Notes: generated by a model not told the origin, from the letters alone. DNA of 64,000 nucleotides from Bacteroidota bacterium (GCA_036477295.1 JAZGDE010000015.1:1287-65286), one strand, 5' to 3'. Counted from the stretch's first letter, positions 1 through 64,000 are shown. Program-made: numbers and translations.

Positions 1-258
1 CCTGATCCTGAGTTCCATCAGCACTCGGGATTGTTTGATGTCGCGAAGTGCGACAAGGATTGGGGTGGGCCATAGGTCGGTACCGAACCATCCCGCCATT
101 TGTTGACCGTCCAGGGAAACACGGGCTCAAGATATTCTTCAGTCAAGGTATTGCTAGTCGGTCGAATCAAAGAAACTACCTATGCCGTTTCCAATGACCT
201 CGCTCATGCTAGGCATTGTTGTAACCGATTGAGTCTTCGTCACCCCGCACAATCTACC

Positions 259-287
259 TTGCATTTTGAAGGCACCCTGGCTATATT
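259..287 (+). promoter_or_regulatory. sigma70-type promoter upstream of prmC
   Basis: -35 TTGCAT 259-264, 17-nt spacer, -10 TATATT 282-287. It lies ~20 nt before ATG 310. Motif match only. Confidence 0.5.
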
Positions 288-309
288 GCGCGTGATTTTA
301 CCTCACTGT

Positions 310-1209
310 ATGACTGAGCAACTTCAGGAAACCGAAAAGCGCGCGTGGACTATCCTCGACCTTCTCAACTGGGGCACTGACTATCTCGCCGGGCGAAAGT
401 TTGATAACCCGAGACTGAACGTTGAACTCCTGCTAGCGGCGGCCCTCGGCTGTGGTCGCGTCCAACTGTACACGAATTTTGACAAACCGCTCAGCCCGAG
501 CGAACTCTCGACATTCAAGAAGCTCTTCGAGCGTCGCCTCGCTCATGAGCCGATACAATACATCCGGGGCGAGACGGAATTTCTGTCGCACCGGTTTCTC
601 CTCACGCGCGACGTGCTGATCCCACGACCGGAGACCGAGATTCTGGTCGAGAAAGTTATCGAGCAGTGTAAGCAGAAATGTCAGGACAGGCGCGTAATAA
701 AAATCCTGGACTTCGGAACAGGTTGCGGCAACATCGCAATCAGCATCGCGAACCATGTGGAGAATGCTGAGGTGATCGGCTTCGACATCAGTGAGAACGC
801 GATCGCTGTCGCGCAGAAAAATCTCGGACTCCACGGGTTGAAGGGACGGGTGAAGTTTGCCGTCCTCGACCTCTTCGCGCCTCTGGAGGAAGGGTTTCGC
901 GCAAAGGTCGAGATGGTAGTGTCGAACCCGCCGTACATTTCGAAACAAGAGTTCGATCGCCTGATGCCCGAGGTTCGCGAATACGAGCCGAGAATTGCCA
1001 CTTGTGATGAGGATGATGGCTTCCGCTTCCACCGGCGAATTGCCGACCTGGCGAAAGCTCTCCTTGCACCGGGTGGTTGGCTGTTCCTCGAAGTTGGGTT
1101 CAATCAGGCCAAGGATGTAAGGGAAATTCTCCAGCAGCGGGGGCTGAAGAACATGGATACATTCACGGACTATGCCGGTATCGAACGAGTGATGCAAGCG
1201 CAGCGATGA
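310..1209 (+). CDS. prmC: peptide chain release factor N5-glutamine methyltransferase
   Basis: ORF track 100..1209. Has 'ILDFGTGCGNI' (SAM pocket) and 'VVSNPPYI' (NPPY). Start moved to ATG 310 because the promoter at 259-287 lies inside the longer ORF. The stop overlaps the dtd start (ATGA). Confidence 0.9.
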   Translation: MTEQLQETEKRAWTILDLLNWGTDYLAGRKFDNPRLNVELLLAAALGCGRVQLYTNFDKPLSPSELSTFKKLFERRLAHEPIQYIRGETEFLSHRFLLTRDVLIPRPETEILVEKVIEQCKQKCQDRRVIKILDFGTGCGNIAISIANHVENAEVIGFDISENAIAVAQKNLGLHGLKGRVKFAVLDLFAPLEEGFRAKVEMVVSNPPYISKQEFDRLMPEVREYEPRIATCDEDDGFRFHRRIADLAKALLAPGGWLFLEVGFNQAKDVREILQQRGLKNMDTFTDYAGIERVMQAQR

Positions 1210-1670
1210 AGGCTCTGATTCAGCGCGTGAAGCGGAGCAGGGTGACGGTCGACGGACGCGTGCTCAGCGAAATCGGAAACGGCATGCTGGTATTCTTGAG
1301 TGTGAAGCAAGGAGACTCCGAGGAGGACGCAAAATACTTGGCGGACCGATGTGCATCGCTCAGGATTTTTGAGGACGAGAACGGCAAAATGAATCGGTCG
1401 GTTCAGGACCTCGCGGGAAGTGCTCTGGTTGTGTCTCAATTTACGCTGCACGGCGATACGCGAAGAGGAAACCGGCCAAGCTTTGACAAGGCTGCACCCC
1501 CGGAGGTTGCCGAGCACCTCTATGAGGTATTCCTCGAAAAGCTGAAGACGCAGCTCGGCGAACACAGAGTTGCAGCCGGAGCCTTTCGGGCGATGATGGA
1601 CGTTGAGCTTGTGAACGACGGGCCCGTTACCATCATGATCCAGAGTAAGTCGGAGTACACCTCATCATAA
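1206..1670 (+). CDS. dtd: D-aminoacyl-tRNA deacylase
   Basis: 'MKALIQRVKRSRVTVDG...' and the 'VVSQFTLHGDTRRGNRPSF' signature. ATG 1206 lies inside ORF 1077..1670. Confidence 0.9.
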   Translation: MKALIQRVKRSRVTVDGRVLSEIGNGMLVFLSVKQGDSEEDAKYLADRCASLRIFEDENGKMNRSVQDLAGSALVVSQFTLHGDTRRGNRPSFDKAAPPEVAEHLYEVFLEKLKTQLGEHRVAAGAFRAMMDVELVNDGPVTIMIQSKSEYTSS

Positions 1671-1697
1671 CGTTCCATTGAGGGAAAAGATACCGCA

Positions 1698-2447
1698 ATG
1701 CGCGACCTTCTGTTCTTGATGTTTGTCTTGCTCCTCTCAGCAAGTGGCTTTGCACAACTTCTGGAACTGCGCGAAACGGCAAGCGCTCATTTCAAGATCC
1801 AGTTCGGGTCGGACTACGACGACGACGAAGTCGAGATGGTGGGGAGCGAGCTCGAATTGGCCTACCGTCTCCTGAATCAAAAATACGGCCTCAAGGTGCA
1901 GAAGAAGCTCCCCGTGTACCTGACCAGCTCCGAGGTTTCCTACAACCGCAAAGTTCCCGTTCGTGAGCGCTGGGGGGCGGCATACAGCAATCGGACGCTG
2001 TACTTTCAGCCAATGAGCTACATCCGGAAAAACGGTGGGCTGAGAATCACGGTTCGCCATGCCCTCGCTTTTGCGATGCTTCGACCGATCGTTGCGAGCG
2101 GTTGTCCGCCGTGGCTCGCAAGATCGTTTGCCGTGAACTTCTCGGGCGAGATGGAAATTCTGAGCAAACCGTCGCAAACCCGCATCAAATTCTTCACGGA
2201 CCTCAACGAGGTGCTCGAGGAGGCTCGGGGGCTGCCAGACCTCGAGACGAGTTACTACACAGCCGGTCTTGCCGTTCGCTATTTTGAAGAAAGGTTCGGA
2301 TCGCGAAAGGTGGCGGATCTGATCAAGAGTTTCGATGGTCGATCGCTCGACAACCAGGTGAAGGAGAAAGTTTTTGGTCTACCATTCAACGACCTGCAGT
2401 ATGAGTGGGTTCAATACGTCGACAGGCGGATCAATGCTAGCCAGTAA
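1698..2447 (+). CDS. secreted hypothetical protein, possibly peptidase-MA-like with a degenerate metal motif
   Basis: 249-aa ORF with N-terminal signal peptide 'LLFLMFVLLLSASGFAQ'. 'VRHALAFAM' sits where HExxH would be expected. The family assignment is weak. Confidence 0.55.
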   Translation: MRDLLFLMFVLLLSASGFAQLLELRETASAHFKIQFGSDYDDDEVEMVGSELELAYRLLNQKYGLKVQKKLPVYLTSSEVSYNRKVPVRERWGAAYSNRTLYFQPMSYIRKNGGLRITVRHALAFAMLRPIVASGCPPWLARSFAVNFSGEMEILSKPSQTRIKFFTDLNEVLEEARGLPDLETSYYTAGLAVRYFEERFGSRKVADLIKSFDGRSLDNQVKEKVFGLPFNDLQYEWVQYVDRRINASQ

Positions 2448-62513: not shown

Positions 62514-62599
62514 CTGTTGGACTGGACTGAGGGGAAGCTCCCGTCAGTACCTCTCCTTGCGTAACCTGCTCACCACCTCGCATCAGGAGCACTCCGAGT

Positions 62600-62911
62600 T
62601 CATCTCAGAGAGTGGGCGCACTGGGGGCAAGAAGCCTCCAGGTTGATCAAAGCGTTCATACTATTCCGCGTCGGCGCTGAAAAGAGATTGATTCCCTGAA
62701 GCAAACTTGCCTTCGCAGGATTGACAAATGGGTCAGCGAGTGGGTCGTCGAATGCAATCGCGAGATTCCCCATGCCCCGAGCAAGCGACGGATGAAACTC
62801 CGATTGATTGCTCGCGATCACCGGCACGGTCCGTAGATGGATCGACTGTGCGATAAGTAAACACGTAAATGTCAGGAATAGGAATGCAAAGAAAAGGCTG
62901 TTCGTTTTCAT
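62600..62911 (-). pseudogene. N-terminal fragment of a secreted/outer-membrane protein
   Basis: Signal peptide 'MKTNSLFFAFLFLTFTCLLIAQS', then ~80 aa ('GNLAIAFDDPLADPFVNPAKASLL'). The ORF ends 86 nt from the convergent gene, leaving no room for a full-size barrel. Confidence 0.4.
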
Positions 62912-63035
62912 TGGAGCCTCCACAAGAAATGGGACTTACAAACATCCAACAGACTTTCCATGCCTTGTTTTTTTCCCAGCAAGTAACGTGCTGGCAAGAT
63001 GGGTTGCTGGTTCAGCGGCCTTTCGATGGTACGCT

Positions 63036-63443
63036 TTATTTCGCACCTAATGCTTCGGCAGCTCTCTCGACGTTCGAAGCGTCAACCCAGAGAATAGATC
63101 CGTAACTTCCCGCAACCGTAATGGCGTGGATAGCACGGATATTGATGCCAGCTTGCGAAAGGGCTTCCAAAGGCTTTAGAAACGCGCCGGTGCGGTCTGC
63201 GCCCTTGACAAGAAAGCCTGTACCTTCTTCGGCAAGCAGCCCGGATGCTCTCCAGGAATTTCTCAACTTGTCCGGATTCTTGGCCACCACATACAGTTGT
63301 GCCCTTCCCTCCTGAGTTGCAAATCCCCAAAGTCCCGTCAGACCGAGGCTGTTCGCTTTCAGGTCTTGCATGACCTTCAGCAGAGCACCCGGCTGATCTT
63401 CGAGGTTTGCGACGAAATACGTAACGCGACCGACTTTCGGCAT
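63036..63443 (-). CDS. tandem ACT-domain (ligand-binding) protein
   Basis: 'YFVANLEDQPGALLKVMQDL' and 'FLVKGADRTGAFLKPLEALSQAGINI' form two ACT-like beta-alpha-beta-beta-alpha-beta units. Confidence 0.65.
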   Translation of the reverse strand: MPKVGRVTYFVANLEDQPGALLKVMQDLKANSLGLTGLWGFATQEGRAQLYVVAKNPDKLRNSWRASGLLAEEGTGFLVKGADRTGAFLKPLEALSQAGINIRAIHAITVAGSYGSILWVDASNVERAAEALGAK

Positions 63444-63496
63444 ACGAACCTCCTTTTCGAACAGTGGTAAATGTTGGGATTTGTTTCTTATCTGTT

Positions 63497-64000
63497 ATCT
63501 CTCGCCGCGAGGAACTGAGGCGAGGGATGAAGGCATCTGTTTTCTGGGATTGGCCAGAGAGGCATCAACCGGCTGCGGAGCATCGGCGAATTTCGGTCGT
63601 TCCAGTCAATTGGAATTGCCAAAATTCTCCGAAACATACACCAGAAAGAAATCATTTGTCCCAAGAAAAGCAAATCCGGATGGAAAGCCGCTGGATCCTC
63701 GATTGGCGAATTTCCGAAGTCCCGCCGCACTTCGTGAGTAAGCGGTTCAAGATTCATGCCCGACGTGTGGGACTTCGAGAGGACCTTCACTTCCATAGCC
63801 TTCGCCACACGTTCGCAACGTGGCTTGTTCAGGAAGGGGTTTCCATATACGATGTGCAGAAACTACTTGGGCATAGTAGTATATCGGTCACTCAAATTTA
63901 CTCGCACTTAGCAGCAAGTGAGCTTCACGGTGCGGTAAACAAAATACAGGTCGTGCTCAACGGAAGCGGGAAGCGGGAGAGGGGAGGAAAACCATACCCT
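63497..64000 (+). pseudogene. 5'-truncated tyrosine recombinase (phage-integrase family), running off the window
   Basis: The frame is open from 63425 to the window end. It reads 'SRREELRRGMKASVFWDW', 'RISVVPVN', 'HFHSLRHTFATWLVQEGVSIYDVQKLLGHSSISVTQIYSHL'. The N-terminal core-binding domain has no room because the ACT gene starts at 63443 on the other strand. Confidence 0.7.

Follow-up and report, generated by a model that had tools for sequence, protein, structure and literature searches.

Gene decay in a 64-kb stretch of an Ignavibacteria-like Bacteroidota genome points to reductive evolution at an early stage

Introduction

When broken genes are found among long and intact open reading frames (ORFs), the question arises whether the organism is losing functions or whether the sequence was damaged during its reconstruction. 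This question is posed by a 64,000-nt stretch of DNA (C20:1287-65286; the window, meaning the whole stretch that was analysed) from a Bacteroidota metagenome-assembled genome (MAG), G000, in which about 10-11 of about 65 genes (about 15%) are decayed. From the comparison with two MAGs of the same genus, we consider with a probability of roughly 70% that the genus is losing genes through ongoing reductive evolution at an early stage. The window itself is a new example of a well-known process, to which a series of decay stages within one genus and a private collapse of nucleotide synthesis in one of its members add interest.

Genomes compared

The source of the window is an uncultivated Ignavibacteria-like member of Bacteroidota. 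Its MAG has 1.70 Mb in 112 contigs, 53% GC, a completeness of 88.8% and a contamination of 0%. Two MAGs of the same genus were used for comparison: G001 (isolate K_3_bin.67; 670 contigs, contig coverage ~4.9x, 5% contamination), with ~94% nucleotide identity to G000, and G002 (isolate SCS3bin.55; 67% complete), with ~78%. All relatives outside the genus reached a MetG identity of at most about 67%, and every relative found through MetG was a MAG carrying the label Bacteroidota, Ignavibacteria or Kryptoniota. Individual loci were checked by three-frame translation, Pfam and alignment to both sisters, and the distinction between mutations and artefacts was purely comparative, based on alignments to the G001 and G002 contigs.

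Decayed genes in the window

Ten of the 11 loci flagged as decayed in the original prediction turned out to be gene remnants (Table 1), and the accompanying statement that every ORF longer than 2 kb is uninterrupted held for all seven: ComEC, GH57, TopA, BamA, MetG, an HHH_3 protein and an MltD-like protein are open with full domain sets. The remaining locus, flagged as possibly decayed, is not a pseudogene, since the NHL-repeat protein encoded there has an ORF of equal length in G001, with a ratio of nonsynonymous to synonymous substitution rates (dN/dS) of 0.27 at a synonymous divergence (dS) of 0.49. In G001 metG (C137, L011, 850-2925; ~4.9x coverage), there is an in-frame TAG, which may be an error rather than decay.

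The lesions evidently differ in age. Two deletions predate the split from G001, and most of the losses are private to G000. The first of the older deletions left a stub of hpf, the gene for the ribosome hibernation factor, in the 203-nt gap between xerD and hprK, which is the slot of hpf in relatives (topA-xerD-hpf-hprK; 110 aa in G011). The junction, at 34266-34389 in G000, is identical in G001, whose copy adds one 1-nt deletion. With 14 codons as opposed to the ~88 positions of the Ribosomal_S30AE domain, the locus is a remnant and not a member of the HPF/RaiA family. The second of the older deletions joined the signal peptide to the barrel in one of the two TonB-dependent receptors (the second receptor in Table 1), which forms a decay series: the gene is intact in G002 (736 aa with CarbopepD_reg, Plug and barrel domains), N-terminally deleted and frameshifted but about 505 bp longer than the G000 copy in G001, and shortest in G000, where the junction is at 45840-45850. 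On top of the common deletion, private lesions are present both in G000 and in G001. The G000 remnant has a dN/dS of 0.10 versus G002, which indicates that the loss is recent.

At several loci, the same gene was damaged differently in the sisters. The small outer-membrane beta-barrel gene shows three different breakages: in G000, +1 insertions at about 44917 and about 44987 split the ATG and signal peptide from the barrel, the 237-aa frame itself being open; in G001, the damage consists of separate 1-nt and 7-nt deletions; and in G002, the gene is reduced to a remnant of ~290 nt. Lesions that differ between G000 and G001 are also found in the metalloenzyme, DUF3108 and VOC genes. At the metalloenzyme locus (junction 8649/8652), G000 is missing 1482 bp of G001:C68, a segment that holds a gene for a 373-aa membrane protein as well as the beginning of the metalloenzyme gene, and an additional 1-nt frame break lies near 9045, while the G001 gene has a separate deletion of ~177 bp. 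A metalloenzyme frameshift common to both MAGs was also considered and dropped because the alignment cannot distinguish it from two independent events. An intact paralog, also matching PF01676, is located at 2459-3370. The 868-bp deletion behind the DUF3108/hexapeptide fusion has its junction at 27767-27770 with about 4 nt of microhomology. It removed the first ~60 codons of the hexapeptide gene and most of the DUF3108 gene, a loss overlooked in the original prediction. About 870-900 extra bp are present at this site in G001:C51 and G002:C134, and in G002 the DUF3108 gene is intact (276 aa) and the hexapeptide protein has 192 aa. The VOC gene is frameshifted in G000 at a GGCCCC run near 54111-54116, a single-base shift that could be an error, and in G001 it has lost its first ~100 codons (the first half).

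The other remnants are intact in G001 or replaced there. For the first TonB-dependent receptor, the PF13715/PF13620 matches in G000 are confined to positions 2-60 of the 88-position profile. In G001, the intact gene is spread over two contigs, with the Plug domain within at least 440 aa on C547 and a 240-aa barrel end on C360, and a 203-aa lipoprotein gene follows; at least 3 kb including that gene were lost from G000, with the junction at 23468-23597. In RicT, the reading frame is interrupted at about 40972-40981 by a tandem duplication of 5 nt, and the ATG at 40591 is likewise out of frame with the gene body; the duplication is absent from G001, where the frame is open for 280 aa. The 499-aa signal-peptide protein is intact on G001:C179, and the DNA to the left of its G000 junction, which marks a deletion or rearrangement, maps to a different contig, C337. 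The integrase remnant extends about 130 nt beyond the end of the window, yet its truncation is not an edge effect because the 346-aa integrase of a relative aligns over only 27%. At the integrase site, G001:C334 (L125) has instead short repeats on both strands, which translate as '...SEVPPPAKRS...' or 'RFAGGGTSE'.

Table 1. Flagged loci of the window, with positions counted from its first nucleotide, and broken nucleotide-synthesis genes on other G000 contigs
Feature	Position	Originally flagged	Strand	Content
Metalloenzyme-superfamily paralog, pseudogene	8466-9286	8536-9286	+	PF01676 on C-terminal fragment
TonB-dependent receptor (first), stub	23207-23600	23207-23500	+	Signal peptide and CarboxypepD_reg, 97 aa
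Out-of-frame fusion of DUF3108 gene start and gamma-carbonic anhydrase-like hexapeptide gene	27615-28135	27575-28135	+	Single 868-bp deletion
hpf (ribosome hibernation factor), stub	34266-34310	34266-34351	+	14 codons, MNISITARHFELSA, then stop
PSP1/RicT pseudogene	40591-41445	40507-41445	+	Pfam PF04468
Small outer-membrane beta-barrel gene	44908-45632		+	Weak PF13505 match
TonB-dependent receptor (second), remnant	45642-46351		+	16-codon signal-peptide ORF and last ~170 barrel residues
VOC/glyoxalase-family gene, frameshifted	53929-54377		+	PF00903 on first half only
NHL-repeat protein, no pseudogene	60263-60688		+	141 aa, Pfam NHL
Signal-peptide (outer-membrane-like) protein of 499 aa, N-terminal ~95 codons	62600-62923	62600-62911	-	Junction 62658-62661
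Tyrosine recombinase (integrase), C-terminal remnant	63464-64000	63497-64000	+	PF00589 profile positions 110-170 of 172
Broken purine and pyrimidine genes, other contigs	C56:16011-20449, C56:47959-49247, C55:16883-17242, C102:12452-12697			
Broken purine and pyrimidine genes, other contigs (continued)	C68:634-1544, C96:1775-2696, C30:22363-23820			

Decay of nucleotide synthesis and gene content

The decay reaches de novo nucleotide synthesis on other contigs of G000. With the references of the broken genes named by Pfam, the purine genes purD, purC (563-bp deletion), purH (1.7-kb deletion), purB and guaB (673-bp deletion) were found broken, as were the pyrimidine genes carB (2.6-kb deletion) and pyrB; recF, RidA and a CHASE2 sigma-54 activator were also affected. 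Moreover, purL is fragmented and contains an internal stop, and in G000, G001 and G002 there was no match of purM grade. An independent hidden Markov model (HMM) search found that in G000 the ATP-grasp domain of purD is divided between two frames and carries two stops, and that it is intact in G001, G002 and three relatives. The G000 gene has three separate small lesions, one of which is an 11-nt deletion between 8-nt direct repeats. Since purD, purC, purH and carB are intact in G001, their loss postdates the ~6% nucleotide divergence between the two MAGs. At the guaB site, G001 has an open frame which spans the 673 bp absent from G000.

Gene content differs from that of the relatives in the same direction. 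The HMM search with PF02482 gave no hpf in G000, G001 and G002 and one in each of the 18 other relatives. Plug domains numbered 4 in G000, 9 in G001 and 3 in G002 compared with 12-33 in 17 of the 18 other relatives (the exception, G020 with 3, is a 66%-complete MAG); the set of TonB receptors is thereby 3-5 times smaller than that of most relatives. Long ORFs cover 86.1% of the genome and 85.6% of the window, the respective values being 91.4% for the loci of 66 relatives and 90.2% for 1.2 Mb of G028. As the 1.70-Mb MAG is 88.8% complete, a genome size of about 1.9 Mb is suggested, a value that depends on the completeness estimate; the near-complete genomes of the order are larger, 2.0-4.9 Mb and mostly 2.5-4 Mb. 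The comparison of genome size and gene content with relatives, proposed as a check on gene loss, thus came out in its favor. G001 is listed at 3.1 Mb, although it is ~94% identical to the 1.7-Mb G000. Only 74% of its 60 largest contigs aligns to G000, and 9 of these 60 are without any match. This gap could reflect real loss in G000, incompleteness of G000 or contamination of G001.

Relaxed constraint and deletion bias

In the window, the ratio of nonsynonymous to synonymous differences per site (pN/pS) was 0.50 for the remnants vs. 0.25 for 43 intact ORFs (chi-square p = 1.4e-5). A raised value is the expectation if the G000 copies had evolved neutrally over a large part of the period after the split, and the proposed check on the substitution pattern of the remnants therefore speaks for relaxed constraint. 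Genome-wide, the median dN/dS of G000 was 0.22 vs. G001 (dS 0.125), a figure which could be inflated by errors in the low-coverage G001, and about 0.125 vs. G002 (dS ~1). Seven control MAG pairs gave 0.09-0.12 at dS 0.27-0.5 and about 0.06 at dS 0.8-1.5, so the G000 ratio is about twice that of the controls at both divergence levels. In the alignment with G001 (~585 kb), segments of 50 bp or more are missing from G000 in 35 cases (17.8 kb) and from G001 in 18 (4.3 kb); 24 and 11 of them, respectively, cut ORFs. The resulting deletion bias (binomial p = 0.027) was polarised by truncated ORFs alone, most events being without an outgroup. Overall, the view that selection is relaxed in this lineage is supported by the doubled dN/dS, the deletion bias, the loss of hpf, the few TonB receptors and the small genome.

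Three stretches of the window (37075-39225, 43579-44856 and 57843-60688) showed a dS of 0.5-0.6 and 77-89% amino acid identity to G001, with neighbors at dS ~0.1. Such high divergence suggests recombination with a more distant lineage or, alternatively, a mixed-strain G001 bin.

Genome-wide lesion load and ordinary gene turnover

The best surviving alternative is ordinary turnover of accessory genes, according to which the lesions are real, the genome is unremarkable and the window happens to be rich in dispensable envelope genes; any environmental pair at ~94% average nucleotide identity would then differ by a few percent of broken genes. The genome-wide load gives this explanation some room. 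When the ORFs of G028 served as references, G000 had 9 broken genes among 217 conserved ones (4.1%), and the reverse comparison gave 2 of 208 (1.0%; p = 0.063). The comparison with G001, made on its 60 largest contigs (0.79 Mb), gave 37 broken ORFs of 463 in G000 (8.0%) and 33 of 445 in G001, which is thus about equally lesion-rich; part of the G001 share may be error at its coverage of ~4.9x. The seven control pairs, which are few and more diverged than G000 and G001, had 8 of 154 broken (5.2%; p = 0.29 vs. G000), and a stricter open-frame criterion gave 3.4% for G000, 3.9% for G001 and 3.0% for the control pairs. These numbers were obtained after filtering, as the lesion classifier in its raw form reported too many lesions; stops in N-termini that had been extended too far were removed, as were antisense ORFs. 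The differences from the control pairs are thus not significant, and the genome shows neither a bloom of insertion sequences (IS) nor a GC shift, and mismatch repair is intact.

Several observations argue against turnover as the whole explanation. Divergence in the control pairs is 2-10 times that of G000 and G001 (dS 0.27-1.5 vs. 0.125), and per unit of divergence the present pair therefore shows a lesion rate several times theirs. The lesions affect core pathways, with at least six purine genes plus carB and pyrB hit on a background of 4-8% broken genes. Finally, hpf is gone genus-wide and kept in all 18 relatives, dN/dS is about twice that of the controls, and the net DNA loss is 4:1 against G000. 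Taken together, we regard ordinary turnover as unlikely. The original prediction of a very high density of decayed genes nevertheless needs to be narrowed: it applies to the window, while genome-wide the excess is modest and statistically weak, so that "very high" fits the window more than the genome. The same holds for the proposed genome-wide pseudogene count, in which the percentages point in the predicted direction and the p-values do not secure it.

Mutations or artefacts

An origin of the lesions in sequencing or assembly, or in minority alleles, is highly improbable, be it as consensus-error frameshifts, mis-joins or deletion variants of a sub-population. Judged by the alignments, the lesions in the window are mutations rather than errors of assembly. 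Two of them, the hpf junction and the deletion between signal peptide and barrel in the second receptor, recur in G001, an independent assembly from another sample. By hand count, lesions of the two MAGs overlap at 7 of the 65 window loci (11 with lesions in G000 and 8 in G001; p = 3.6e-6) and, if only independent cases are taken, at 4 loci (p = 0.023). Such damage to the same genes in independent assemblies makes random error unlikely. Clean deletion junctions have an overlap of 0-25 nt, and since most short-read assemblers use k-mers longer than 25 nt, these joins cannot be assembler-made. Deletions were thus not bounded by repeats of k-mer length, nor were indels confined to homopolymers: among the small lesions are premature stops, a duplication of 5 nt and a deletion of 11 nt mediated by repeats, and only the VOC shift and one purD indel are in short runs. 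Furthermore, the lesions concentrate in the same genes and pathways, the ORFs longer than 2 kb and about 92% of the tested ORFs being clean, and the broken genes show relaxed dN/dS. In favor of artefacts are the two lesions in short homopolymers and the nature of G000 as a 112-contig MAG, whose private lesions were judged by sequence comparison. In addition, the LysS of the window is encoded in one other record only, which is this very contig in the source metagenome assembly GCA_044345325.1; as the two are identical over 21.5 kb, the record is not independent. An exact-match scan of Joint Genome Institute (JGI) metagenome contigs found neither the junction of the 868-bp deletion nor that of the hpf stub. 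The original claim of gene loss instead of sequencing error is nonetheless well founded, given the shared lesions, the parallel private lesions, the microhomology junctions and the relaxed constraint.

Mutator and insertion-sequence explanations were also considered. A hypermutator through loss of MutL is rejected, given an intact 632-aa open frame, and IS-driven decay is not supported, as no IS expansion was detected in G000, a weak test since repeated IS copies tend to drop out of MAGs. MutL and IS, the two candidates looked at, thus gave no mechanism by which the mutation rate would be raised. On the G001 contig that neighbors the VOC remnant (C251, L119), an IS110-type transposase gene (2867-3988; the type being read from the sequence without a Pfam run) lies downstream of mnmA, and it had no tblastn match in G000.

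Ongoing reduction and its possible course

Several of these results weigh against the preferred reading of early, ongoing reductive evolution. MutL is intact, IS expansion was not seen and the GC content of G000 (53%) is not lowered. The lesion excess over controls is weak genome-wide (p = 0.063 and p = 0.29), and the lesion count of G001 about equals that of G000. The lesions were judged from assembled sequence, and a few of them are in short homopolymers (the C-run of VOC and one A-run in purD). The size estimate rests on MAG completeness. Lastly, purA, purE and pyrF are still open in G000, which fits a pathway released from selection only recently.

The course of events is probably as follows. 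Genes are inactivated by replication slippage and microhomology-mediated deletion, the step that is visible in the lesions themselves, which range from 1-nt indels, 5-nt duplications and 11-nt deletions up to deletions of 170 bp to over 3 kb. Such mutations would persist through relaxed purifying selection on the affected functions, possibly with a small effective population size, and the dead genes may then gather further lesions. The functions lost in this way comprise outer-membrane uptake, ribosome hibernation, RicT, small accessory enzymes and much of de novo purine and pyrimidine synthesis, with partners or a host presumably supplying nucleotides and other nutrients. The organism probably depends on such external nucleotides. 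We infer a host- or consortium-associated lifestyle, which the decay of purine and pyrimidine synthesis on other contigs makes more plausible. Still more tentative, and somewhat short of even odds in our judgment, is the idea that G000 has been caught becoming obligately dependent on other cells since it split from its ~94%-identical sister, which would make it a natural and datable case of early symbiont- or epibiont-like reduction. Lifestyles of this kind are not known from its class.

Comparison with known systems

Early-stage reduction is known from recently host-restricted bacteria such as Sodalis glossinidius, Mycobacterium leprae, Shigella and Yersinia pestis. G000 resembles them in its frameshift, stop and deletion remnants with multiple lesions per dead gene, in deletion bias, raised dN/dS and a genome smaller than that of relatives, and in the loss of uptake systems, stress functions and biosynthetic pathways. 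However, the pseudogene load in Sodalis or M. leprae is some 30-50%, as opposed to roughly 4-8% genome-wide and about 15% in the window for G000. Unlike the host-restricted cases, G000 is also without detectable IS proliferation or AT drift, still has a coding density of about 86% and is an environmental Ignavibacteria-like MAG.

The ongoing loss of de novo purine and pyrimidine synthesis, the fewer uptake receptors and the small genome are likewise reminiscent of "Black Queen" auxotrophy, in which adaptive gene loss makes cells depend on their community, and of episymbionts deficient in nucleotide synthesis such as the Patescibacteria/candidate phyla radiation (CPR). Those lineages have compact genomes with the genes already gone and few remnants. 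In contrast, the remnants in G000 are still visible, purA, purE and pyrF are open, and the ~94% sister keeps purD, purC, purH and carB intact. Split and truncated ORFs in a fragmented MAG are also what consensus errors or chimeric contigs look like, yet here the lesions are shared or paralleled in independent assemblies, fall into pathway clusters, have microhomology junctions and go along with relaxed constraint.

Other features of the window

A further pseudogene considered at 29196-30445 was rejected, as csp, a 157-aa ORF and ybeY lie there as three intact genes in a common frame, besides a spurious 289-aa antisense ORF. The tRNA-Val reported by ARAGORN at 3675-3749 inside comEC is probably a false positive, Rfam giving no tRNA at the gathering score. 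At 46376-47788, a TatD-type DNase domain and a radical-SAM domain are fused in a single ORF of 470 aa, whose full length is conserved in G002. A ~55-nt GC-rich hairpin-like repeat (AACCGACCCGTCCCGACGA...TCGGGA.CACCAGATCGG) is present at 51936-51992 and 61411-61467; contigs C65, C70 and C54 hold more copies of it, and G001 has several. From its sequence, it looks like a small element of the repetitive extragenic palindrome (REP) or miniature inverted-repeat transposable element (MITE) kind.

Significance

The split ORFs of the G000 MAG should be annotated as pseudogenes and not "repaired." Textbook genome reduction is mostly seen late or in insect and human pathogens. Here, a graded series is found within one genus, with genes that are intact, partly deleted or nearly gone, and with core nucleotide pathways decaying privately in one member. 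Such a series would allow the order and tempo of gene loss to be measured in an environmental lineage, and its predicted consequence is a nucleotide auxotrophy that can be tested.

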